Source of the DNA: a virus
Virus genome (UHGV): UHGV-0236456
Length of the DNA: 38,772 nt
Strand: one strand, 5' to 3'
In this document: positions 14,477 through 38,772 of the stretch, one piece after another
Layout: each line of letters begins with the position of its first letter
Numbering within the stretch: position 1 is the stretch's first letter
Translations under genes and position numbers: made by a program
Notes under the pieces: generated by a model
The model's database searches: none
Seen by the model: only the letters and a program-made list of their open reading frames with translations
Told to the model about the DNA's origin: nothing

Positions 14477-14552
14477 TGGTGGCCCCTACCGGACTTGAAC
14501 CGGTGACCGTGCGATTATGAGTCGCCAGCTCTAACCACTGAGCTAAAGGGCC
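14477..14552 (-). tRNA. tRNA with CAU anticodon (tRNA-Ile2/lysidine-type or Met)
   Basis: 76-nt cloverleaf read manually: acceptor GGCCCTT/AGGGGCC, anticodon loop CUCAUAA, T-loop GGTTCAAGTCC, 3' CCA; closest to E. coli ileX-type. Confidence 0.85.
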
Positions 14553-14579
14553 GGATTACTGCCAATTTTGCTTACGCTT

Positions 14580-15407
14580 TTATTTCACCGGAACAAACGG
14601 AACAGCGGTATTACTGGTCATATACTGCGGTAATGTACCGTTCCATTTGTTGATCGCTTCCAACTCCATAACACCGGGGTTCTGGCGCAGAGCTTCACCA
14701 CGTAAACGAATGGCATCAGCTTCGGCCTGGGCTTTTGTGCGAATAGCATCAGCCTGTCCGGCAGCTTCCGCGCGCAGCATGTTGGCCTCTGCTTCACGTT
14801 GTTTGACCTCTTGCTCGCGTTGCAGGGTTTTTTGGTTTGCCGTGACTTTGGCGTTAATACTGTCAATAACTGTTGGCGGGTATTCTGGCTTACCTACATA
14901 AGAGAGGCTCATCACCTGAATGCCGATTGGCGTCATTTCTTCCTGAATGTCTTTAAGGGCTGCATCAAGCAATTCAGATTTGCCACCGTCGATAAATTTG
15001 TCGGTGGTCATTTTGCTGGCTAACCGGTTCAGAGCATCTGCAACCTTCTGGCGTAGATCGGTATCAGTAATATCATCTACACCTTTGCGATAGGTCTGAA
15101 ATACCGTTGTGACTTTTGCTGGATCAACCTTGTAGGCTACGCCGATGTGGTAACCAATGGTTGTTCCGTCGCTCATCTGGAAGCTGAACGGCTCATCGTA
15201 TGTCTTCATTTGCTTAAAGGTCGGGAAGATATAAACTTCAGTATTCAAGCCTGTCCAGTAGCGACCAACGCCAACTACTTCACCGATACCTTTATCATCC
15301 CCCAGCTTATTTACTTTGATCCCTACGTTACCTGGCTCTACCCGATCGCATCCGGTCAGACATAAAGAACCCAAAATAATCGCTGCACTAATCAACGTTT
15401 TTTTCAT
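14580..15407 (-). CDS. SPFH/band-7 (prohibitin-like) lipoprotein
   Basis: Lipoprotein signal MKKTLISAAIILGSLCLTGC (lipobox LTGC); SPFH core then Ala/Glu/Gln-rich coiled coil; 275 aa. Possibly P1 plp (unverified). Confidence 0.8.
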   Translation of the reverse strand: MKKTLISAAIILGSLCLTGCDRVEPGNVGIKVNKLGDDKGIGEVVGVGRYWTGLNTEVYIFPTFKQMKTYDEPFSFQMSDGTTIGYHIGVAYKVDPAKVTTVFQTYRKGVDDITDTDLRQKVADALNRLASKMTTDKFIDGGKSELLDAALKDIQEEMTPIGIQVMSLSYVGKPEYPPTVIDSINAKVTANQKTLQREQEVKQREAEANMLRAEAAGQADAIRTKAQAEADAIRLRGEALRQNPGVMELEAINKWNGTLPQYMTSNTAVPFVPVK

Positions 15408-15624
15408 TAATTAATTTCCTGGTTTTTTCACGAAAAAAGACTACTGCGAAAGCCGGGTAAATGAGCGCGAGAAGGACTCCCAACAATACAAGTATTGTGC
15501 TGTTAGATGAGATCATATTTGGCAAAAGCCAAACATACAGAACCAGTGACACAATCAAACAGAGGACGGCATAAATATATAACCGCACCCATAGCGTTCG
15601 ACATTTGTTCGAATTGTTCTGCAT
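15388..15624 (-). CDS. small integral membrane protein (two predicted TM helices)
   Basis: 78 aa with two hydrophobic stretches; overlaps the SPFH gene start by 20 nt (coupled). Possibly P1 upl (unverified). Confidence 0.5.
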   Translation of the reverse strand: MQNNSNKCRTLWVRLYIYAVLCLIVSLVLYVWLLPNMISSNSTILVLLGVLLALIYPAFAVVFFREKTRKLINEKNVD

Positions 15625-15799
15625 CCTCTCACTCCATTATTTAACGAATAAAAAAGCTGCGGTGCCGGGTGCCTCCCGGTGTCCTTTGGCTGGTTATCCA
15701 CCGTGGACGGGGAAACAAGGAGAAATGAATGGACTGATATAACCATTTCCCCGCGTGCGCTTAGCCGCATTCACCGCAACGGAAAGAGCATTCTTGGTG

Positions 15800-16552
15800 G
15801 ACCTGTAGATTGGGATATGAACCCGTTACAGGAGAATGCTCTTACCTGTTACGTGCTCCGTTTCGTGGAGCTAACGGCGGGTGATCGGGCCGCACCAGGC
15901 TGGACTTATTTCAGCGTTATGCTCATGCCAGAGAATCAAACTGTGATGGTCGGTGCTGAACTCCGACACAGGGTTGTAGCAAGCCCCGCAAAGCGCGCAC
16001 TACTGTAGTTGCGGCACATCAGCCTGTGCATTCACCACAATGTTGAGAACACTGGTTGTCACGCTGCAACGCAACATTTATTCGTAGATTGGGATATGAC
16101 CCCGTTACGCCAGTGTTCTCAACGTTGTAGTGCCGGTTACGGTTCCGGCCAGGCCTCTTCCTCAACGGGGTGTTCTCCATACGGACTACCGTTTATTGGT
16201 CGTTCCTGCGGTTTATGTTGTGAAGCCAGATGCTTATCTTCTGGTTGCTTCAAAGAGCTGCACTTCATCACAACGGTAAGAGCACTCGATGCATTTAAGC
16301 CAAGCCCCATAAGGGAGAATGCCCTTACCTGTTGTGTTGTGATGACCGGTGCTGATCTCCGGCTTGCGGTTATTTCAGACTCTCACGGGCGTTTAATTGC
16401 CCCGCCGAACAGCTCTTTTCCGCAATAGCTGCAATGTCTTTCGCGCATCAGCCTGCGCATTCATCACAACGGTAAGGGTACTTCGTAGGGATTCGAACCC
16501 TCTGCCAAGCTCGGCGATCTCCGACGTCGCAAAATACCCTTACCTGTTGTGC
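15800..16552. repeat. array of short repeated modules and nested inverted repeats containing degenerate tRNA T-arm-like fragments
   Basis: Repeats read directly: CATCAGCCTG(T/C)GCATTCA at 16018 and 16447; GTAGATTGGGATATGA(A/C)CCCGTTAC at 15805 and 16083; CACAACGGTAAG(A/G)G at 16269 and 16465 with inverted partners CCCTTACCTGTTGTG at 16322 and 16537; 18-bp inverted repeat 16038-16055/16110-16127. Confidence 0.5.
16481..16534 (-). pseudogene. tRNA-like fragment (T-arm GGGTTCGAATCCC) enclosed by a 16-17 bp inverted repeat; probably a tRNA remnant
   Basis: Minus-strand sequence contains a canonical T-loop but no D-arm or complete anticodon arm. Confidence 0.3.
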
Positions 16553-17391: not shown

Positions 17392-19400
17392 ATTGCTATA
17401 ACGTCATGAGCAACACCTCGAGTGTCCCCCTTACAAGACACAGAACGTCTGGCAAAAAGAGGTTCCACTCTGAAGCCACTGTCCTGATAAAGTTCTCTGA
17501 TGTTTGGCGCGCCACTGTTAGTAATGAGAACCTTTGCACCTCGGCGATGAGCATCCGTCAACAGAGACGCCAGGCGTTTTTGCTCTTCAAACTTAAAGTC
17601 ATGACCGGAATAGTTCGTGAATCCCTCTGTATTTGGGAGCGGTTCATACGGCGGATCGCAAAAGATGACATCTCCTTCTCCGGCAGCTTCAATCACCGCA
17701 GCAAAATCACCACATACAAACTCAGAACGCCCTTCCGCACCAAGGAAGGCTTCCATCTCCTGCAATGGGAAATACGGAGTTTTATACTTCCCATAACCGA
17801 CATTGAACTCACCGGCTTGGTTGTAACGCGTCAATCCGTTAAAACAATGTCGGTTCAGGAACAAAAACGCCGCTGCGCGATGTAAATCATCATAGACTTG
17901 TTTGTTAAACGCATTCCGTACTGCCAGGTATCCTTCCTGCGTGTTGTAGTCCTGGAAGAAACGATGTGCCAGAGTGATAAGTGAATGCGCCTCGCGTTGC
18001 AGAGTCTTGTAAAAGTTAATCAGGTCAGCATTCACATCATTTAGCAGATTTTCCTGGTATCCGGCATTCATGAAGACAGCTCCGCCACCAACGAAAGGCT
18101 CAATCAGGCGCTTCCCTTCTGGCAAATAGCGAAAGATTTGTTCCAGAACACCAAATTTTCCACCAGCCCATTTGAATATGGACCGTTCGAATTCTGCCGC
18201 TGGTTTAACTTTTCGCTCTTTTGTTTCACTCCCTTCCTTCTGCCGACATGCAGCCTTGGCAATCCGATCGCCAATCCAGCGCATTACTGGTATCGCCATA
18301 CTATTGCCGATCGCTTTGTAACGCGGTCCGTCAGCTGCAAGCATCGCGGCCTCTTCTTCGCTCAAATCAGGATAGTTTTTGCGAAGGTATGCCAGTTCAT
18401 CTGAAGAAACTTTTTTACGCTTTTCCGTAGGGATCAATGTATGTCCATCAGGAAAACCTTGCAGCCTTTCACATTCGACAGGGATAAGACGGCGCATTCT
18501 ACCGTCGACGAGCAATACAATTGGTGCTTCATGGTTACATGTCAAAGTTGGTGCCGAATTATCGGTTTTTATCTCAGCCCCTCCTTGCCCATGTGCCATG
18601 GCAACTATGTTTGTATCATCGCAAGATCTGATAGCGATGTTTGAAGTATATCTGGTAGTTTCCTTCCCCTCGCCTCTGCTCGGCGCAATATTCCGGCGCA
18701 CGCCTTCGAACTCAAAAAGTACCGTTGCGGGATCGAGGTCTGTTCGAGCACTTGCGACAACAAACACGCGTCGGCGTCGTTGTGCCACTCCGAAGTATTG
18801 GGCATCAAGGATTCTCCAGGCCACCTTTCGCTGCGGTCCATAAATACAACCACACTGCGGCCACTTTGGAGCATGGCAACCGGTTTTGCCATCCCACCGC
18901 CAGAACGCGTTACTTTTTCCTGATTCAGGTCGATCACCTGGTTCAAATGGCGCATCTTCTCCAGCCAATCCGGCAAGGAAACATCCGAAGGCGTTATCTG
19001 CCGATGACAGGACTCCTGGGACATTTTCCCAGACGATAACTGTCGGTTTGAGGAAGGACTCAGACCGTTTGTCGTCAATTGCATTTGCAAGCTCCACATA
19101 CTTCAAAGTTAGCGCGCCGCGTTCATCATCAAGCCCACCACGTAAGCCCGCGATACTGAATGCCTGACAAGGCGTACCCCCGACGAGCACATCAGGGGAT
19201 TCGATTTCCCCAGCCAGGACTTTTTTGGCAAGTTTTGTCATGTCGCCAAGGTTGGCGACATGGGGCCAGCGGTGCGCAAGAACGGCAGATGGAAAAGGCT
19301 CGATTTCAGCAAACCACGCCGGACGCATACCCAACGGTTCCCAGGCAATACTCGCGGCTTCAATTCCACTGCAAACAGATCCATAGCACAGCTCTTTCAC
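17382..19400 (-). CDS. dmt: bifunctional DNA methyltransferase: N-terminal C5-cytosine MTase fused to C-terminal Dam-like N6-adenine MTase
   Basis: N-terminal [12 protein letters not shown] (PCQ) and VWENVPG (ENV) motifs; C-terminal [11 protein letters not shown]...DPPY motifs colinear with Dam; 672 aa. Confidence 0.9.
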
Positions 19401-22469: not shown

Positions 22470-22862
22470 ATGTCTGATAAAGTAACAGTAAAGCAAACTA
22501 TCAACAAAGCGACTTCAATCTACAAAATTGAGCAAATCACTGTTGGCAAGCCAGGATCTGAACAATACCGTCGTGCTTTCGAGCTTGCCGATCAGCTTGG
22601 TTTAAAACACCCGGATTGCATTGAGCATGTATTTCCGACCTATGCTGATGAGCAATGTACTCATGTTCTTACCGAAGAGGATTTTTTCAGCACTGAAGAA
22701 CGAGAAGGCGTTGATCGCTGCATTGGTGTGATTTGCTCTTCAGTGAGTTATGAGTTATTCCCTAATGTCCATGAAGATGGTGGTGTTGGATACCAATTCC
22801 TGTATGAAGGCGATGAGCTTAAATGTTATGAACATGGTCTTCTTATCGAAAGCGTAGAATAA
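22470..22862 (+). CDS. hypothetical protein (130 aa)
   Basis: SD AAAGGGA; acidic protein with several Cys/His; no recognised motif. Confidence 0.6.
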   Translation: MSDKVTVKQTINKATSIYKIEQITVGKPGSEQYRRAFELADQLGLKHPDCIEHVFPTYADEQCTHVLTEEDFFSTEEREGVDRCIGVICSSVSYELFPNVHEDGGVGYQFLYEGDELKCYEHGLLIESVE

Positions 22863-22876
22863 TATGACTTCCTTCC

Positions 22877-22901
22877 AACCGGCTTTGTTGGCCGGTTTAT
22901 T
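22877..22901 (+). terminator. hairpin AACCGGC-TTTGTTG-GCCGGTT followed by TATT; probable terminator
   Basis: Read in sequence downstream of 22470..22862. Confidence 0.4.
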
Positions 22902-23016
22902 CAACTTATCCACAGCATAGATCCAATAAACAGATCCTAAAGAGAACCTAGGAAGATCCAAAGAAGATCCCGGATCGCTGTAAGCCGCGTCATTACTGGC
23001 CTGAAATGGGATCAAC

Positions 23017-23121
23017 ATTGACTATACGCGATTTTATGTTGACTGTGCACGATTTATTGTTGACTGCACGCGATTTATTGTTGACTATACGCGACAGAAA
23101 CATTGACTGTAAGCGATTTTA
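23017..23121. repeat. oriR-type iteron array (five ~19-bp direct repeats, TTGACTNNNCGCGA core, ~21-bp periodicity)
   Basis: Direct repeats read in sequence immediately upstream of repA. Confidence 0.8.
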
Positions 23122-23197
23122 GAGTCTGAATATTCACAGCTGTTGATAACAGCCATCCAAATTGACGTCAGGCCGCGCCACACATGGAGAAACCGTG

Positions 23198-24082
23198 ATG
23201 CCGGAAGAAAGTAAAGGCTTCCTTAGCGTTGAAGAAGTTGCAGGAAATACAGGAGAAATCCACAGCCTGAAGCCCAATAACAACAGCACTATACAACCCA
23301 TCGCTTTGTTGCGCTTAGGTGTGTTTGTGCCAACCTTAAAATCTACCAATGTGGCGCTACGTCGCGGATCGTCAGTTACAACAAACACAACGAACGCAAC
23401 TGAAGAACTATCAAGCCTCAAAATTGTTGAGCAGGAAGGCTATGAGGGAATTGAAATTCATGGTCCACGCCTGGATATGGATACTGATTTTAAGGTGTGG
23501 GTGGGCATAACCTCCGCGTTGTTTGACTACGCACCTGATGATGACGGCATAATCACCCTGCCATTCTCCGAGTTTGCCGATCGATGCGGCTATCCACGTA
23601 AGCGCCTTTCAAAGGCGTTCCGTAAAAGTATTGATGACTCTCTGACACGCATTCAGCAGACAGTTGTCAAATTCCGCTTCCCGGCGGCAAAAGGTCATCT
23701 CAATAACATTAACGTCAACTTGTTGGCATATAGCAGCCTGAATACCGAGCTTGATGTTATCGAGATCCAGCCGCAGAAACAGCTATCTGAACTTTACTAT
23801 GTTGACTATAAGCGAATCCTGAAGCTGAAGATGCTGGATAAACTAGGGCGCAAAGAGACGGCCAAGGTACTGTATACATTCTTTGAGGCTCTACCCGCCA
23901 ACCCGGCACCTGTCAGCATTGAGCGCCTTAGAGCGAGGCTTAATCTCAAATCATCCGTTAGCGTGCAAAATAGCGTTATCAGAAAAGCCATGAAAGATTT
24001 GGAAGCTATTGAATATCTTAAATTTTCAGAGATAAAAAACGGCAGGAAAATCGGCTTCCAGATCCATAAGCGCAATCCATAA
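23198..24082 (+). CDS. repA: plasmid replication initiator RepA (P1 RepA-like iteron-binding protein)
   Basis: Start at ATG 23198 (GGAG SD); flanked by iterons on both sides; sequence colinear with P1 RepA as recalled. Confidence 0.9.
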   Translation: MPEESKGFLSVEEVAGNTGEIHSLKPNNNSTIQPIALLRLGVFVPTLKSTNVALRRGSSVTTNTTNATEELSSLKIVEQEGYEGIEIHGPRLDMDTDFKVWVGITSALFDYAPDDDGIITLPFSEFADRCGYPRKRLSKAFRKSIDDSLTRIQQTVVKFRFPAAKGHLNNINVNLLAYSSLNTELDVIEIQPQKQLSELYYVDYKRILKLKMLDKLGRKETAKVLYTFFEALPANPAPVSIERLRARLNLKSSVSVQNSVIRKAMKDLEAIEYLKFSEIKNGRKIGFQIHKRNP

Positions 24083-24345
24083 TATTGACTATATGCGATA
24101 GCGAGAAGTTGACTATAGGCGACATTCGTTGACGCTGGTGGATTTTTGCTGGCGTCAATATTCTGCAAGTCGCTATTGAGATGGCTTTTAGGGGCATTTC
24201 ATCGCGTATAGTCAACGTTTCTCCCGACAATATCTTACATAGTCGATCTTTGGTGGAGTTAAATCGACTACAGTCAACTTTTGACTGTAGTCACATCGCG
24301 CATAGTCAACTATTCACATTAACCTTCGCGCATAGTCAACATTTG
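24083..24345. repeat. incA-type copy-control iteron array (about nine iterons in both orientations)
   Basis: Repeats TTGACTATA(T/G)GCGA and inverted CGCG(T/C)ATAGTCAAC read in sequence directly downstream of repA. Confidence 0.75.
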
Positions 24346-24374
24346 CGCGGTTCTCATCAAGCAGTGGTATTGAT

Positions 24375-25184
24375 ATGCAAGAAGAGAAACAACACTACCT
24401 CTACGTTCTGGTGCCAGAGAACGGAGATACTTTTAAAATCGGCATTTCATGTGGTCCATTGGCACGGTTTAAAGGGCTACAAGTGAGTCCCGATTTTGCG
24501 CTTTCACGGGTCTATCGTGGTACGCGTTTGGCAATGGTTAATCTTGAGCGGGCTTTACACGCAACCTTTTTCCCCTGGAATGCGCCGTGGGAGAAAAGCG
24601 CCGGTGGCGGGCATACTGAATGGTTTACACGAGAGTGTCTTGATAAGGTTTTGGCTCATATCGAATATCTAAATGATATGTGGGGAGGGATTCTCGAGCG
24701 CATTAAGTCGAATGATTTACTTCAGCGTCCAGTAGATGCTGCTTGCTCTTTCGAAAAAGAGCTGGATGTTACTTCTATCGTGACTTTCAAAGATGACGCA
24801 GGAATGAGGGACGTGGCTTATGTCTCCATATCTGGCTATGAACCGGACGCGATCCGCGCTCAATGTGAATTGCTGAAAGCAATGTTTATGCTTCGGACTA
24901 AATATCCCTGGGATACAGGGCGGGTGTGCTTCCCTATGGAAGAGTTAACCGCCACCATTGATTCCCAGCTTTACCACGATAATCCAGAGAAGTTTTTTAG
25001 CCTTTTAGCCGGTAATGGGCTTAACTGTGTGTCCGGGCTGGGGCGAAGTAGAATCCAACATGCCTCGCTCTTCGGTCCCTTCTTTTACGATCGACACGGG
25101 TACTTTGAGGCTGAACTTCCGGCGCTTACGCGTGCTATAGATACTATCGATTTCGAACGATTATTCGCTGCTCTTAGCAAATAA
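24375..25184 (+). CDS. T5orf172/GIY-YIG-like domain protein (putative nuclease) with uncharacterised C-terminal domain
   Basis: N-terminal YLYVLVPENGDTFKIGIS...ERALHATF...GGGHTEWF resembles the GIY-YIG-like T5orf172 (MUG113) pattern; 269 aa; own terminator; sits between incA iterons and parA. Confidence 0.7.
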   Translation: MQEEKQHYLYVLVPENGDTFKIGISCGPLARFKGLQVSPDFALSRVYRGTRLAMVNLERALHATFFPWNAPWEKSAGGGHTEWFTRECLDKVLAHIEYLNDMWGGILERIKSNDLLQRPVDAACSFEKELDVTSIVTFKDDAGMRDVAYVSISGYEPDAIRAQCELLKAMFMLRTKYPWDTGRVCFPMEELTATIDSQLYHDNPEKFFSLLAGNGLNCVSGLGRSRIQHASLFGPFFYDRHGYFEAELPALTRAIDTIDFERLFAALSK

Positions 25185-25191
25185 CACTGAT

Positions 25192-25212
25192 GCCCCTGAA
25201 CGGGGCTTTTTT
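25192..25212 (+). terminator. rho-independent terminator (GCCCC-TGAAC-GGGGC + T6)
   Basis: Read in sequence immediately after the T5orf172-like gene. Confidence 0.6.
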
Positions 25213-25352
25213 GTGCCCTCCTTGTAACTCTCAATCGTGCAAAATGAACCAAACATGCAGAGAATGCTATGTACAAGCATCTACGCATACATTATTATTT
25301 TATGCAGCATTTTTAATTAAATTCAAAAATACAGCATAAAGGATGACTTTCG

Positions 25353-26549
25353 ATGAGTGATTCCAGCCAGCTTCACAAGGTTGCTCAAAGAGCAAATAGA
25401 ATGCTCAATGTTCTGACTGAACAAGTACAGTTGCAAAAGGATGAGCTACACGCGAACGAGTTTTACCAGGTCTATGCGAAAGCGGCACTGGCAAAATTGC
25501 CTCTACTGACTCGTGCGAACGTTGACTATGCCGTAAGTGAAATGGAAGAAAAGGGTTATGTTTTCGATAAACGCCCTGCTGGCTCTTCAATGAAATATGC
25601 GATGTCAATTCAGAACATCATTGACATATATGAACATCGCGGAGTGCCAAAATACCGGGATCGCTACAGCGAAGCGTATGTGATTTTCATCTCCAATCTT
25701 AAAGGCGGTGTGTCAAAAACTGTATCGACGGTTTCTCTGGCGCATGCAATGCGTGCTCATCCTCATCTTCTGATGGAAGATTTAAGGATTCTGGTTATTG
25801 ACCTTGATCCGCAATCTTCAGCAACGATGTTTTTAAGCCATAAACACTCTATTGGTATCGTAAACGCAACATCTGCACAGGCTATGTTGCAGAATGTAAG
25901 CCGTGAAGAGCTGTTAGAGGAGTTTATTGTTCCTTCTGTTGTACCTGGGGTTGACGTTATGCCTGCGTCGATTGACGATGCCTTTATTGCATCCGATTGG
26001 AGAGAGCTGTGCAATGAGCATCTACCGGGTCAGAACATCCATGCAGTCCTGAAAGAAAATGTGATTGATAAGCTGAAGAGCGATTATGACTTTATCCTCG
26101 TTGATAGTGGTCCTCACCTTGACGCCTTCCTGAAAAATGCTTTGGCCTCGGCCAATATACTGTTTACACCTCTGCCGCCTGCAACGGTTGATTTCCACTC
26201 ATCGCTTAAATACGTTGCCCGCCTTCCTGAGTTGGTGAAACTCATTTCGGATGAAGGCTGCGAGTGTCAGCTTGCAACTAACATTGGTTTTATGTCCAAG
26301 TTGAGTAACAAGGCAGACCATAAGTATTGCCATAGCCTGGCTAAAGAAGTGTTCGGTGGGGATATGCTTGATGTTGTCCTCCCTCGCCTTGACGGTTTTG
26401 AACGCTGCGGCGAGTCTTTTGACACTGTTATTTCAGCTAACCCGGCAACGTATGTTGGTAGTGCTGATGCATTGAAGAACGCGCGAATTGCTGCGGAAGA
26501 TTTTGCTAAAGCAGTTTTTGACCGTATTGAATTTATCAGATCTAACTGA
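25353..26549 (+). CDS. parA: type Ia partition ATPase ParA
   Basis: 398 aa; deviant Walker A KGGVSKT; N-terminal DNA-binding extension typical of P1 ParA/SopA; followed by parB and parS. Confidence 0.95.
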   Translation: MSDSSQLHKVAQRANRMLNVLTEQVQLQKDELHANEFYQVYAKAALAKLPLLTRANVDYAVSEMEEKGYVFDKRPAGSSMKYAMSIQNIIDIYEHRGVPKYRDRYSEAYVIFISNLKGGVSKTVSTVSLAHAMRAHPHLLMEDLRILVIDLDPQSSATMFLSHKHSIGIVNATSAQAMLQNVSREELLEEFIVPSVVPGVDVMPASIDDAFIASDWRELCNEHLPGQNIHAVLKENVIDKLKSDYDFILVDSGPHLDAFLKNALASANILFTPLPPATVDFHSSLKYVARLPELVKLISDEGCECQLATNIGFMSKLSNKADHKYCHSLAKEVFGGDMLDVVLPRLDGFERCGESFDTVISANPATYVGSADALKNARIAAEDFAKAVFDRIEFIRSN

Positions 26550-33131: not shown

Positions 33132-33156
33132 AAAGCTCCTTCGGGAGCTTTTTTTA
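33132..33156 (+). terminator. rho-independent terminator (AAAGCTCC-TTCG-GGAGCTTT + T-run)
   Basis: Read in sequence. Confidence 0.6.
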
Positions 33157-33283
33157 TAACTATTTTATATAAACATGCATCGATAACATTGTCTGGAGTT
33201 TTATGTTAGATTATTAATGTTCTAATAAACTACAATTATTGAGGTAGATGTTTGTGCCTGTACTGTTAAAGGGGGACTCTAAA

Positions 33284-33880
33284 ATGGCTGTGATTCCAAT
33301 GTCGTACTCCCCGGGTACTGTCGCTCGTCGATTTTCGATCCTGGACGGAGTTACCATCCAGGGTGTGCTTTACCAGGTTATATGGGATTCCAAAACCCCA
33401 TTTGCAGCTGTAATAGAGGCTGCGCCTTCTATTATCGATGGTGATATGCGCCATAAGGTTGTCGCCACTCTTGAACTTCAACGTCGCCCACAGCTTGAAG
33501 GCGTACTGGTGAGGAAGTTCTGGGAAGATAACGATGTTGCCCAGATTGAAGGTATCGTGGTTGATGGAATCGTCCGGGATGTCGGTTTAGCCACTTTTGT
33601 TTATGAAACCGTAGCTTCAAAAGCCGGAGTTGTTTTGCTAAGTGACAATGAGCAATACGAAGGCGGAAAGGCTCTTTGGCAGCACATCGCTCGTCGTTCT
33701 TCCGAACTAAAAGTTTTTATCCTTGACACCGATACTGCTCAGTATTACCCATTTGATGGCGAACGTGTTTGCTATGACGGGAAAAGTATTCCTGAATCCG
33801 AGATATGGAGTGAACATCCGGATCGAAGTAAGCATGGGGTTGTTCTTGTCGCAGAATCCATAACTGGAAAGGCGGCATAG
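33284..33880 (+). CDS. hypothetical protein (198 aa)
   Basis: Start at ATG 33284 with SD AAAGGGGGA after a 170-bp AT-rich leader. Confidence 0.55.
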   Translation: MAVIPMSYSPGTVARRFSILDGVTIQGVLYQVIWDSKTPFAAVIEAAPSIIDGDMRHKVVATLELQRRPQLEGVLVRKFWEDNDVAQIEGIVVDGIVRDVGLATFVYETVASKAGVVLLSDNEQYEGGKALWQHIARRSSELKVFILDTDTAQYYPFDGERVCYDGKSIPESEIWSEHPDRSKHGVVLVAESITGKAA

Positions 33881-34168
33881 CAGTAAAATTCCTTGCTCCT
33901 TAAAAGGGGAGAGGGTTAATCTAGATATGCTAAGCATAGATATGGCCTCAGATTAATGTTAAGCGTCTTGCAGGACGCGTAATGTTATCTGGGGCTTTCT
34001 TCTGTTATTTGTTTGAGTGCTAGGTAGCAAAGAGAGCTAGCATTCATCAGGCAAATCTATCAATAAATAGCGTTAGTTTTTGTTGTGTGTATGTTTCTTT
34101 ATTGTTATTGTGTTGTTTGTTTTTTGGACGACGCAATTCCTATAATCTATAGAATAAAGGAAGCATAT

Positions 34169-34456
34169 ATGGCTGATGTACGCATTACTTGCATTACCCT
34201 CTCCGGCTCGCAATCAATCCATGAGCATATTACTCATGTGGGAAGTCCTCAATTTAATACTAGCAATGGGAAATGGACTGTTGAGCAGGTAATTAATGCT
34301 ATTGATAATAATCTCCATACATTCTATGTAACAGATAATGCAGGTAATCGTGTAGAAGTTGGGGTTGTTAATCCTGGTAATGGTGGAAGGCAGTTTATTA
34401 GAACGTATGCAGACAATCGATGGAATAATAATTTACTATCGCTACCAGTCTGTTAA
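34169..34456 (+). CDS. DUF3892-like small protein (95 aa)
   Basis: SD AAGGAAG; RITCITLSGSQSIHEHITHVG...GKWTVEQVINAID...FYV...GNRVEVGVVN...FIRTYADNRWNNNLLSLPVC matches my recollection of the DUF3892 pattern; AT-rich gene. Confidence 0.6.
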   Translation: MADVRITCITLSGSQSIHEHITHVGSPQFNTSNGKWTVEQVINAIDNNLHTFYVTDNAGNRVEVGVVNPGNGGRQFIRTYADNRWNNNLLSLPVC

Positions 34457-34471
34457 TGTAATTTTATAAAA

Positions 34472-34500
34472 AGGCTGCAACCTCTGTTGCAGCCTTTTTT
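34472..34500. terminator. bidirectional rho-independent terminator (GGCTGCAAC-CTCT-GTTGCAGCC flanked by A-run and T-run)
   Basis: Read in sequence between convergent genes. Confidence 0.6.
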
Positions 34501-34525
34501 TAGCCATTATGACTGAGATAAGCCA

Positions 34526-35581
34526 CTATAAACTCTGAACAAGACGTTCGATTGCTGCACCATATCTTTCTAATGGTTCATTATTGATTTGTGGCTCAGT
34601 GTCATGGATCTGATATCTGCCTGGTTTTATATCAAATAGAGGTCTTCCTAGATGGGAAGATACTATAGCTACGGAATGGTTATCTGGCACAGTAAACGTT
34701 TTTAAATTTCCGCCTTGGAACGCTGTTGGTTTATTCGTCCGCAGATTTTCAGCTCTATCCCTGATTTCGTCGAACATTGCCGAAAACGCTTTACTTGCTC
34801 GTTTGTCATACTCTGTCGAACGATTAAAAACTAGAGAATGAATGACAGGAACCGCTAGACCAAACTGTTGACACCGATCGTAAAAGTTAACAGAACGATA
34901 ATCGTTTTGTACTCCAACGCCATAAACCAACTGGCTTAGGTTATCCACTGCTCGAGCCGAAGAACCATCACTTGAGCAAGGTATTATAATTGCATTTGCT
35001 GCTATCAGTGATAGTTCGGTATAGGCAGAGAAACTGGGATTGCAATCAATAAAGCAAATGGTTTCTTCGATACCTTGTTGTTGTGCACATGCAACAAGCA
35101 AATCTCGTAGCCACAGGTGGATGCTTTTCCATGAGTCAACTGGTAAGTTTACGCTGCTTAACTGATTGATTACTTGCGCCTGAACTTCCAGGCTTGGGTC
35201 GCCTGCAATCAAAAATACATTGTCAGGGACATGCTCGTTAATTTCAGAGACATGAATTAAGAAACTTGTTTCTGAACCGGTAAGCATGTGGGGGCTGCGA
35301 GTTCTTCTGTCAAAGTACCCACCGACAGTTTTTCGTTGTTGAATTAAGCTCGCGAGGTTAGCAGCACCAGTACCGTTACCGCCGAGCAATATTTCAGATA
35401 AGTTAGCCTGCGGGCACATATCTGCAAAAATAATACGCTTTTCTGGATTTTGCCTTGCGTATTCACAGGCCATAGCGAAAGATAAGTAGGTCTTTCCTAC
35501 GCCACCTTTATTATTCCAAATAGCATATGATTTCATGGTATCCCCGGCGTTATCTGCTGTTTGTGTGCCAGCATAAGTCAT
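34526..35581 (-). CDS. orphan ParA/MinD-family ATPase with extended C-terminal domain (alternative start at 35536)
   Basis: Deviant Walker A NNKGGVGKT near N-terminus, DMCPQANL and IDCNP motifs; no adjacent ParB-like gene. Confidence 0.7.
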   Translation of the reverse strand: MTYAGTQTADNAGDTMKSYAIWNNKGGVGKTYLSFAMACEYARQNPEKRIIFADMCPQANLSEILLGGNGTGAANLASLIQQRKTVGGYFDRRTRSPHMLTGSETSFLIHVSEINEHVPDNVFLIAGDPSLEVQAQVINQLSSVNLPVDSWKSIHLWLRDLLVACAQQQGIEETICFIDCNPSFSAYTELSLIAANAIIIPCSSDGSSARAVDNLSQLVYGVGVQNDYRSVNFYDRCQQFGLAVPVIHSLVFNRSTEYDKRASKAFSAMFDEIRDRAENLRTNKPTAFQGGNLKTFTVPDNHSVAIVSSHLGRPLFDIKPGRYQIHDTEPQINNEPLERYGAAIERLVQSL

Positions 35582-35845
35582 TATGCATCTCCATTACTAT
35601 CCATGAATTAAGTCAAAAAATATGTAAAAGTAGCAATGTATCACTCTTTTACTAATTATAAACGTTACAAGTTGTGATGGTTAGCTGTGTTTTTATCAGT
35701 ACAAGTTTTGATCTGGCTTTGGGTTTTTATATATGGATATGTCTCAACGATGCCCTGCAAAAAGTAATCGCTAACTGTAAAAAATCAGATTGCATCTCCG
35801 ACCTCAAACTGAAAACGCCAGGTGACTCCAGATTAGAGCAATCTA

Positions 35846-37685: not shown

Positions 37686-38747
37686 TTAACCTATTGCTAC
37701 TGGTTTTAACAAACCAGCATCAAGTAGCTTGCGAGTTAACCACTGCTGGCCTTTACCCGTTAATTGGGGCGTCAGCCGTATCTGGTAGCCATTTTCATCA
37801 TCCAGCACCACTTCTTTCACCGTGAAATACCCGGCGTTGATGTACTGTTGGCGCGGTACGTTTTTGCGCGCTCCAAAAGCCATGAGAATGCCATTCTGGC
37901 GCAACCATGAGAAAAGGGCGTTTTGCTTAAGTCCAACGACCTTTGCAAAGTTCCCGATCAGGATTCCATTGGCCACTGATACCCGGTCGGCAAAATCGAC
38001 TTTAGGGGCTGCGGCCACCAGCTGTTGTTCCAACTGCATTTTCTGTTCTGCTAACTCGGCAGCCAGGCGTAGGGCTTCTGGTAATGTTTGGGGGATTGCG
38101 ACCGGTTGCTGTTCTTTTTGCCGGAAGTAGCTGTCTTCCAGTTTTTCAAAGAATGCCCAAGCTTCATTTGTGTCCACGATCTTAGACATGCGTGCAGCGC
38201 CGCGCTCGGCCCAGAGAATTACCTGACTTGTATATTTGCTAACCAAGTGACTAATAGTCACTAGCCTTTTAAATTCCTTTAATTTTGAACCAGTTAAGAG
38301 ATAGTAATGCTTACCTTCTTCAAAGCGATCGGGGTTGCGAGACAAATTTTTACGAATATTCGCTTCATCGGTCCCATACCCCTTAGCAAGAGTCTCAGTT
38401 GTCACTACACGTACTCCCAGCCATTCCAGAACGGGAATTTCATCAGGCTGATTTTGAGCAACCACCAGCTCTGATTCCTGAACTGAAGGTGCATGAATTT
38501 TTTCTAATTTAACGTTATTTGCTTTCATTCTGTGTGCCTCCTTGCGTGCTTCGGCTGCGACGGTTGCGTAATTCAGATGACCCTGTTCGAGCAGGTATTC
38601 GCGGATATCAGACAACAGGATACGGTGAACCGCGTTCTTGTCCTTTCTCCGGTAAAGTTGTTTGGTGATCATGAAGTAGTTGGCAATAACGCCTGGTATA
38701 TCCCTGGTACTGATACAGGCAGTGTGCTGTTCAATTGCCTCGATCAT
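37686..38747 (-). CDS. ant: phage antirepressor (Ant-like; C-terminal KilA-C/antirepressor domain)
   Basis: 353 aa from first Met; reading frame stays open to the right window edge so the true N-terminus may lie outside; C-terminal domain paralogous to kilA C-terminus. Confidence 0.8.
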   Translation of the reverse strand: MIEAIEQHTACISTRDIPGVIANYFMITKQLYRRKDKNAVHRILLSDIREYLLEQGHLNYATVAAEARKEAHRMKANNVKLEKIHAPSVQESELVVAQNQPDEIPVLEWLGVRVVTTETLAKGYGTDEANIRKNLSRNPDRFEEGKHYYLLTGSKLKEFKRLVTISHLVSKYTSQVILWAERGAARMSKIVDTNEAWAFFEKLEDSYFRQKEQQPVAIPQTLPEALRLAAELAEQKMQLEQQLVAAAPKVDFADRVSVANGILIGNFAKVVGLKQNALFSWLRQNGILMAFGARKNVPRQQYINAGYFTVKEVVLDDENGYQIRLTPQLTGKGQQWLTRKLLDAGLLKPVAIG

Positions 38748-38772
38748 CTCTTCACGGGTGACTAATGACGTT

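Follow-up and report, generated by a model that had tools for sequence, protein, structure and literature searches.

What does a nuclease-like gene do between the copy-control iterons and the partition operon of a P1-like phage-plasmid, at a place where phage P1 itself has no gene? We addressed this question in UHGV virus genome UHGV-0236456, a stretch of 38,772 nucleotides that was analysed at its full length (the window) and that carries an open reading frame (ORF) of 269 amino acids between the iterons downstream of repA and the promoter of parA. Plasmid replication and partition of P1 form a textbook system, and P1-like phage-plasmids of the p0111 type are common carriers of extended-spectrum beta-lactamase (ESBL) and mcr genes in Escherichia coli and Salmonella. 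Roughly half of the natural P1-like elements carry this nuclease gene between their copy-control iterons and their par operon.

A first-pass annotation of the window had described the gene as a cassette of about 1 kb inserted between P1 incA and parA. Our comparisons showed instead that it is the right-hand end of a 2.25-kb replacement cassette, and that its product joins a T5orf172 domain, of the GIY-YIG superfamily, to a domain with the predicted fold of a plasmid replication initiator. It is more likely a weapon or a selfish homing element in conflicts of related plasmids than a simple 1-kb insertion.

The gene product joins a T5orf172 domain to a predicted WH1-like domain

The gene and its parts are located as follows.

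24375..25184, plus strand: T5orf172/GIY-YIG nuclease gene, 269 amino acids (ORF, Pfam, PHROGs), with a weak Shine-Dalgarno sequence
24375..24689, plus strand: N-terminal catalytic domain, amino acids 1-105
24756..25181, plus strand: C-terminal domain, amino acids 128-269, with a predicted winged-helix fold nearest to WH1 of iteron-plasmid initiators
25192..25216, plus strand: intrinsic-terminator-like hairpin GCCCC-TGAAC-GGGGC followed by TTTTTT, which closes the cassette

The ORF is real, with no start codon between the preceding in-frame stop and position 24375, and the motifs YLYVLVPENGDTFKIGIS, ERALHATF and HTEWF that had been read in it are present. These motifs had been taken for the pattern of T5orf172/MUG113 domains. 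The Pfam model T5orf172 (PF10544) matched amino acids 8-85 with 27.5 bits against a gathering cut-off of 20 (E 4.7e-6), while the scores of MUG113 and Tox-URI2 were under their cut-offs. The search of PHROGs returned a full-length match to phrog_2876 (function unknown) and a weaker one to phrog_681 ("endonuclease", E 5.5e-9), and the RefSeq label of the gene is already "GIY-YIG nuclease family protein". In the GenBank record of phage phi456 (OR339795.1, region 40441-40782) this T5orf172 gene was deposited as "terminase small subunit", which is a misannotation.

Comparison of the relatives showed that residues Y10, K21, G23, R31 (24465-24467), E58, L61 and E82 (24618-24620) are invariant in the family; R31 and E82 are so across 17 relatives, in which H62 is nearly invariant. 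From their positions in the motifs (KIG...R and TEWF, respectively), R31 and E82 would be the catalytic pair. Structure models, built from four sequences, consist of a nuclease domain and a separate DNA-binding-like domain in a stand-alone ORF, and their N-terminal domain has the alpha/beta fold of GIY-YIG proteins.

The C-terminal part, which had been left unassigned, was predicted to have a winged-helix, WH1-like fold. Its nearest structural matches were RepE of F, RepA of pPS10, Pi of R6K, Rep of MSBI1.176 and domains 2-3 of RctB, and we presume it to be a targeting or DNA-binding module. It is a single winged-helix-like domain, as opposed to the WH1 plus WH2 of Rep_3 initiators. The C-terminal domain had no Pfam match at E<=10, hence none to Rep3_N or Rep3_C, and a profile search of PDB with this domain gave no match. 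No CapR, DUF723 or DUF4397 zinc-finger domain was detected in the protein, none of the 5,027 PADLOC models matched any of the four orthologues at E<=0.1, and NCBIfam gave no match.

The rho-independent terminator that had been placed 3' of the gene is real. It is a G+C hairpin at 25192-25206 followed by a run of T, with a dG of -11.9 kcal/mol and a z of -2.45 compared with shuffled sequences, and the most diverged orthologue described below (locus L052) also has a similar hairpin and T-tract 3' of the gene.

The gene closes a replicon cassette that replaces incC-repA-incA of P1

The locus is 100% identical to that of phage phi456, and the same region is 98.5-99.9% identical to SJ46, RCS47, JL22 and others. 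Comparison with P1 by blastn, in which window positions 1-5485 lay beyond the P1 segment compared, showed homology that ends at window position 23000 and starts anew at 25251. The intervening 2,250 bp stand in for 1,491 bp of P1 (the incC iterons, repA, incA and a 170-bp spacer) and contain five ori iterons, repA, incA-like iterons and the nuclease gene with its terminator. Because P1 homology breaks between 23000 and 25251, repA and both iteron sets are non-P1. Judged from this alignment, 23001..25250 and some 300 bp of diverged sequence to its left make up a complete non-P1 replicon cassette of the p0111 type, which replaces P1 incC-repA-incA; p0111 is already known as a replicon type among P1-like elements. 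The other features of the cassette and its edges are given below.

22700..23000, no strand: graded left edge of the cassette, with the 3' end of upfA and the left half of oriR, P1-homologous at about 84% identity
22907-22915: DnaA box TTATCCACA, within the left edge, with GATC repeats
23016..23121, plus strand: five ori iterons of the TTGACTATACGCGA type at 21-bp spacing, counterpart of P1 incC (repeat families D1-D3)
23198..24082, plus strand: repA, p0111-type Rep_3 initiator of 294 amino acids (ORF, RCS47 annotation, Pfam)
24083..24344, no strand: incA-like control array (repeat and pattern scans)
25251..25352, plus strand: abrupt right junction, where P1-identical DNA is back 67 bp past the nuclease stop, with Ppar and the parA leader

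The two edges of the cassette differ in sharpness. On the left, 49 mismatches to P1 were found in the last 300 bp, compared with 0-2 per 200 bp farther left, and on the right only 2 mismatches were found over the next 200 bp. A promoter-like sequence at 25270-25298 corresponds to Ppar (promoter scan and P1 annotation). No RNA family of Rfam was found within 22500-25600.

The window RepA is 42% identical to P1 RepA and matched Rep3_C of Pfam above the cut-off (27.3 bits) and Rep3_N just below it (22.0 bits); its profile had no match among PDB sequences. The repeats upstream of the nuclease gene had been taken for P1 incA, and they proved to be its p0111-type counterpart, since RepA is only 42% identical and the iteron is TCGCGCATAGTCAAC and not the CCCTCCAGCACACAT of P1. 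The control array consists of two iterons in the orientation of the origin (24084-24122) and at least four inverted ones (24202-24340), the last of which ends about 34 nt ahead of the nuclease ATG.

A pattern scan of the window for the iteron gave 11 matches versus 0.9 expected by chance, so that one stray match is compatible with chance. Iteron-like 15-mers with 2 and 3 mismatches to TCGCGCATAGTCAAC occur at 23801-23815, in repA, and at 25521-25535, in the 5' part of parA, respectively. A conserved element at 24128-24160, TTGACGCTGGTGGATTTT...GCGTCAA, with a 7-bp stem and a long loop, separates the direct control iterons from the inverted ones; the TTGACGCTGGTGGATTTT element is also present at about 9915-9935 of locus L003, a lineage diverged at 44%.

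The first-pass annotation had also called the gene a self-contained moron, a description that did not hold. No promoter of its own was found, the flanking repA and iterons have been replaced along with it, and its G+C content is close to that of its neighbours: 47.5% for the nuclease gene, 45.6% for repA, 45.1% for parA and 47.6% for the window.

Related cassettes have been exchanged between backbones

The absence of the gene from P1, stated in the first-pass annotation, was borne out, since the annotated P1 reference has no coding sequence between incA, which ends at record position 61487, and Ppar/parA. In one survey of P1-like plasmids, about 24 of 55 (those of the p0111 type) carry the gene (PMC9603915). 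We looked for a remnant of the gene in the 213-bp spacer between incA and Ppar of P1, and neither blastx nor blastn found anything.

PLSDB contains 401 plasmids with a gene for this protein, always at >=90% identity and nearly all from Escherichia or Salmonella, and 398 plasmids with a RepA of the window type (>=80% identity). Of 404 matching PLSDB records, 391 contain the cassette in full, and the partial matches listed are record ends or short fragments. The nuclease gene is linked about 1:1 with the p0111-type repA in about 400 plasmids, among which no gene-less allele was seen.

Diverged relatives are rare. Two word-indexed searches of 5.8 billion proteins returned the window type and one diverged relative (P0004, 44% identical), and scans of genome contigs and viral contigs returned the window type only. 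A HMMER scan of 1.84 billion representatives gave 154 proteins, nearly all with similarity in the N-domain only. One of these, P0010, was matched over its full length and is 27% identical to the window protein; another, P0012, was matched in the N-domain, aligned over its full length when compared separately, and is 25% identical to the window protein and 40% to P0010. Genes of the P0010 type were not found in PLSDB or in the phage collection.

The three diverged relatives (44%, 27% and 25%) all sit between a Rep_3 repA and parA of other P1-like phage-plasmids, at loci L003, L050/L051 and L052, respectively. In these lineages the gene starts 25-33 nt past the last inverted iteron, the iterons being of three types. 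Among the 1.84 billion representatives, full-length members of the family occurred only between repA and parA of P1-like plasmids.

Comparison of L003 and L050 showed a second exchange. Their backbones are common (ParA 99.7% and gp23 99.5% identical), but their RepA proteins are 40.5% and their nucleases 28.7% identical. The non-homologous block (8831-11019 in L003, 6656-8944 in L050) starts at the first ori iteron, and in both backbone pairs, window/P1 and L003/L050, the right edge of the cassette lies 62-84 bp past the nuclease stop. As read from these junctions, the replicon cassette has moved between backbones at least twice, with the nuclease gene at its sharp edge. The RepA of L050 is 83% identical to that of P1, and an IncY-like replicon can therefore carry such a nuclease gene.

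The gene is missing from two Salmonella plasmids, L055 (RepA 90% identical to that of L050) and L056 (RepA 98.6% identical to that of L052), and together with P1 they provide three pairs with and without it: L052 and L056 (98.6%), L050 and L055 (90%), and L050 and P1 (83%). In L056 (NZ_CP077703, 5490-5535) a deletion of about 880 bp has left a scar, in which the first 10 nuclease codons (MNQTNDLYLY versus MNQINELYLY) are joined to the T-tract of the terminator. Since the diverged orthologues share one slot and L056 lost the gene by deletion, the presence of the gene may be old and its absence from L056 secondary.

Candidate iteron copies to the right of the gene (window 25233-25247, and past the stop in L050) failed the threshold of <=3 mismatches and were dropped. 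Also below the threshold for iteron matches, two similar short strings, CCAGCACACAC ... CACAGCACATCC, bracket the nuclease gene of L050 (7962-8001 and 8900-8935) and could be the microhomology footprint of an insertion or a deletion.

The contexts of more distant T5orf172 relatives, which are anecdotal, were mixed. P0015 lies in a chromosomal defence-like island with WYL/WCX, Mrr_cat and Hypoth_Ymh genes, P0018 adjoins relaxase/primase genes and P0024 adjoins HTH_36 and ParA-like genes. A general link of the wider relatives to replicons was considered and rejected, the contexts being mixed and two contigs too short. One metagenome contig (L060, 4431-6813) encodes an HTH_36 protein, which may be a replication protein, with a T5orf172/MUG113 gene on either side and a ParA-like ATPase a few genes upstream, an arrangement which hints that T5orf172 nucleases may accompany replication modules in other mobile elements.

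The gene evolves rapidly and is repeatedly lost

In a sample of 46 loci of the window type, the ratio of nonsynonymous to synonymous polymorphism (pN/pS) was 0.31 for the nuclease gene, compared with 0.021 for repA, 0.002 for parA, 0.055 for parB and 0.155 for upfA. The gene had 30 nucleotide variants, which encode 25 protein variants. Three independent nonsense alleles, S112* (five loci), Q228* (on a contig as long as SJ46) and W68*, were present in about 15% of the sampled loci, the remaining 85% or so being intact. Truncated or frameshifted products are frequent in the protein database as well (P0002, 205 members; P0003, 229 members).

Between lineages, synonymous sites are saturated on the deep branches and the comparison was made on proteins. 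The N-domain is 60-64% identical where the C-terminal part is 28-32% identical. The window and L003 share 84% identity in RepA and 44% in the nuclease, and L050 and L052 share 43% in RepA and 40% in the nuclease. The nuclease tree is thus not congruent in rate with that of RepA, which is compatible with a nuclease that has to some extent moved or turned over independently. Four lineages have kept the ORF with its catalytic motifs at identities of 25-44%. From the pN/pS values, the nonsense alleles, the deletion in L056 and the pattern of divergence, we conclude that the nuclease gene is dispensable, fast-evolving and repeatedly lost.

Candidate roles of the nuclease

The reading that we favour, and to which we give an even chance, is that the protein is a site-specific nuclease used in homing or in competition between P1-like plasmids, or in exclusion or gene conversion together with the linked cassette. 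A free-standing endonuclease with a T5orf172 catalytic module and a WH1-fold targeting module would act on rival P1-like plasmids that lack the gene or carry another cassette, and would cut them at or near their iterons or ori-par junction. The cut rival would then be lost (exclusion), or its repair from the nuclease-bearing plasmid would copy the nuclease and the linked cassette into the rival backbone (homing or marker exclusion). The gene itself is not needed for maintenance or propagation of the phage-plasmid and is one part of a swappable cassette.

This reading draws on the observed architecture, conserved catalytic residues, position by the last iteron, dispensability, rapid evolution and cassette-edge location of the gene; nuclease activity, target and role in conflict are inferred. 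Dispensability and fast evolution are expected of a conflict gene or a selfish gene. Putative T5orf172 homing endonuclease genes have been reported at the boundaries of genetic exchange between phages (PMC10448857), and we count the matching location at the cassette edge in its favour. Homing or competition between plasmids, which had been among the roles put forward initially, is still the best-supported role. In a more specific form, which we regard as doubtful, the protein would be a "Rep-mimic" nuclease, guided by its initiator-like WH1 domain, that cuts the iterons or the ori-par region of sibling plasmids whose cassette differs or lacks the nuclease. Incompatibility would then be mediated by a nuclease, which would remove competitors and also drive the turnover of whole cassettes (IncY to p0111, and others) and their spread from backbone to backbone, as a plasmid counterpart of the arms race of ICP1 Odn and PLE.

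Several results weigh against the favoured reading. The gene is essentially fixed in the p0111 type (about 391 of 404 records with the whole cassette), so that the sporadic presence and absence of an active homing gene is not seen there. The sole informative gene-less allele, L056, is a deletion and not an empty target site. The window and L003 have common iterons and their C-domains are 32% identical, which argues against recognition of the cognate iteron, and sequence kinship of the C-domain with RepA was rejected (BLASTP E 3.1; hhalign probability 0.2%). The scan of the stretch from the last iteron (24340) to the ATG found no sigma-70-like promoter. Cassette exchange can also be accounted for without a nuclease, by ordinary recombination that is selected because it allows escape from incompatibility (PMC10879196).

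Some of the same results could be read as those of an accessory to replication control, in which the WH1-like domain would bind the control iterons or, in the manner of Rep dimers, pair with the WH1 of RepA. It would thereby tune copy number, handcuffing or the transcription of par or rep, and the GIY-YIG module would be domesticated, like CapR of PLE, or supply a nick. The gene always stands directly past the last control iteron and in the orientation of repA and parA in the four lineages, its linkage with repA is about 1:1 in some 400 plasmids, its predicted fold is that of a Rep dimerisation and DNA-binding domain, and a T5orf172 homing nuclease has been domesticated to a repressor before (CapR; PMC10448857). 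The lack of a detected promoter also agrees with such a role, since the gene is then probably transcribed by read-through from the RepA-repressed repA promoter. However, R31, E82 and the entire motif set are invariant, which would be superfluous for a pure regulator, selection on the gene is relaxed (pN/pS 0.31), and nonsense and deletion alleles recur in otherwise intact plasmids. In addition, P1, L055 and L056 replicate and partition without the gene, and the C-domain drops to 32% identity where RepA is 84% identical and the iteron identical. We consider a regulatory role improbable, and we say the same of a defence or exclusion moron, Odn-like or restriction-like, that would benefit the host against unrelated invading phages or plasmids and not against sibling P1-like elements. 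Rapid evolution of the C-domain, the defence-like island around the distant relative P0015 (WYL/WCX, Mrr_cat, Hypoth_Ymh) and the swapping of defence genes by P1-like elements (PMC10879196) speak for defence. On the other side, neither PADLOC nor NCBIfam recognised the protein, the full-length family keeps to the repA-parA slot of P1-like plasmids, its place in the cassette does not vary, whereas the defence hot spots of these elements are variable, and its G+C is not foreign.

Least probable, in our view, is that the gene is a decaying relic, a former homing endonuclease or a gene of other function that would now be neutral in the E. coli p0111 lineage and kept only by its close linkage to the essential repA and par genes. 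The pN/pS of 0.31, the 25 protein variants among 30 nucleotide variants, the three independent nonsense events in about 15% of sampled loci and the many truncated or frameshifted products are what such decay would leave. Yet pN/pS is well under 1 and about 85% of the alleles are intact, and the survival of the ORF and its motifs in four lineages, down to 25-44% identity, calls for selection over the long term or for re-invasion more than once. For the favoured reading, homing or competition between sibling plasmids, the choice over a CapR-like role was made because the anatomy and the evolution of the gene best fit the precedents of homing nucleases and of Odn.

Comparison with known T5orf172 nucleases and initiators

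Odn (Gp88), a chimeric nuclease of vibriophage ICP1, is guided by its RepA-like domain to the iterons of a competing element, and its victim escapes by a change of iterons or a swap of the replication module (Barth et al. 2021, PMC8263062). In Odn, as in the protein described here, a T5orf172 domain with a conserved Arg and Glu (the Glu being E180 in Odn) is fused to a domain that is, by predicted fold in the present protein, like the DNA-binding domain of an initiator, and the module swap of its victim parallels the swapped replicon cassettes seen here. The two differ in that the targeting domain of Odn is N-terminal, of the RepA_N type and 42% identical to the RepA of its victim, whereas that of the present protein, for which we infer cleavage, is C-terminal and Rep_3/WH1-like by predicted fold only, without sequence similarity to any RepA that was compared. 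Odn also belongs to a lytic phage and has a satellite as its target, whereas the present gene lies inside the plasmid's own replicon, by its own iterons.

The putative T5orf172 homing genes of ICP1, T5-like and other phages (Barth et al. 2023, PMC10448857) have the same Pfam domain, are free-standing, lie beside essential genes, exchange their DNA-binding parts as modules and are located at the boundaries of recombination tracts. Of these, however, 87% use CapR/DUF723/DUF4397 zinc-finger domains (PMC10448857), none of which was detected here, and the present gene stands in the maintenance region of a phage-plasmid and is fixed in one replicon type, not sporadic. I-TevI and the Seg proteins of T4 (PMC8263062) share with the present protein the order of N-terminal GIY-YIG domain, linker and C-terminal DNA-binding domain, a free-standing gene and the outcome to be expected, localised gene conversion or marker exclusion. 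CapR of PLE resembles the present protein insofar as such a gene lineage can be recruited for regulation in a mobile element; it is a zinc-finger repressor, whereas the present protein keeps the full catalytic motifs and has no zinc finger that we could find. The Rep_3 initiators are the best structural matches of the C-domain and include the product of the neighbouring repA, but the present protein has one WH1-like domain, fused to a nuclease, and shows no Pfam Rep3 match or profile-profile similarity.

Databases and one paper already record the gene and the fact that P1 lacks it, without naming a function. Apparently new are the finding of orthologues in one slot across several replicon types, the predicted likeness of the C-domain to Rep WH1, the evidence for dispensability from population genetics and the position at the cassette edge. 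Compared with the known T5orf172 homing and origin-directed nucleases, the present protein differs in its predicted targeting fold, has its domains in the opposite order and is encoded within the replicon of an iteron plasmid. If it cuts rivals or promotes conversion, both the sharp edge of the replicon block and its status as a recombination hot spot would be accounted for, and plasmid incompatibility would gain an active layer based on a nuclease. The principle of Odn, a nuclease with a targeting domain borrowed from an initiator, would then extend from a phage-satellite pair to plasmids. If it is a decaying homing endonuclease instead, it would be an ordinary selfish gene hitch-hiking on an essential module.

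Other non-P1 blocks of the window

It had been claimed that every other gene of the window has a positional counterpart in P1. Comparison with P1 showed that 14562-15657 and 33155-35831 are also non-P1 replacements, so that the locus of the nuclease gene is not the sole break in synteny. Further short stretches without a P1 match are 16287-16452, 18495-18678 (inside the dmt methyltransferase gene) and 38097-38772.

The block at 14562-15657 had no megablast match to P1 and encodes a SPFH/Band_7 protein of 275 amino acids (14580-15407, minus strand) where P1 has tciA/tciB/tciC; this gene adjoins a tRNA (CAT) gene at 14477-14552. The 2.7-kb block at 33155-35831 occupies the position of P1 rlfA/rlfB/pmgF and contains ORFs at 33248-33880 (no Pfam match), 34085-34456 (DUF3892) and 34526-35581 (minus strand). 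The last of these encodes a ParA-like AAA_31/CbiA ATPase and is the second ParA-type gene in the window.

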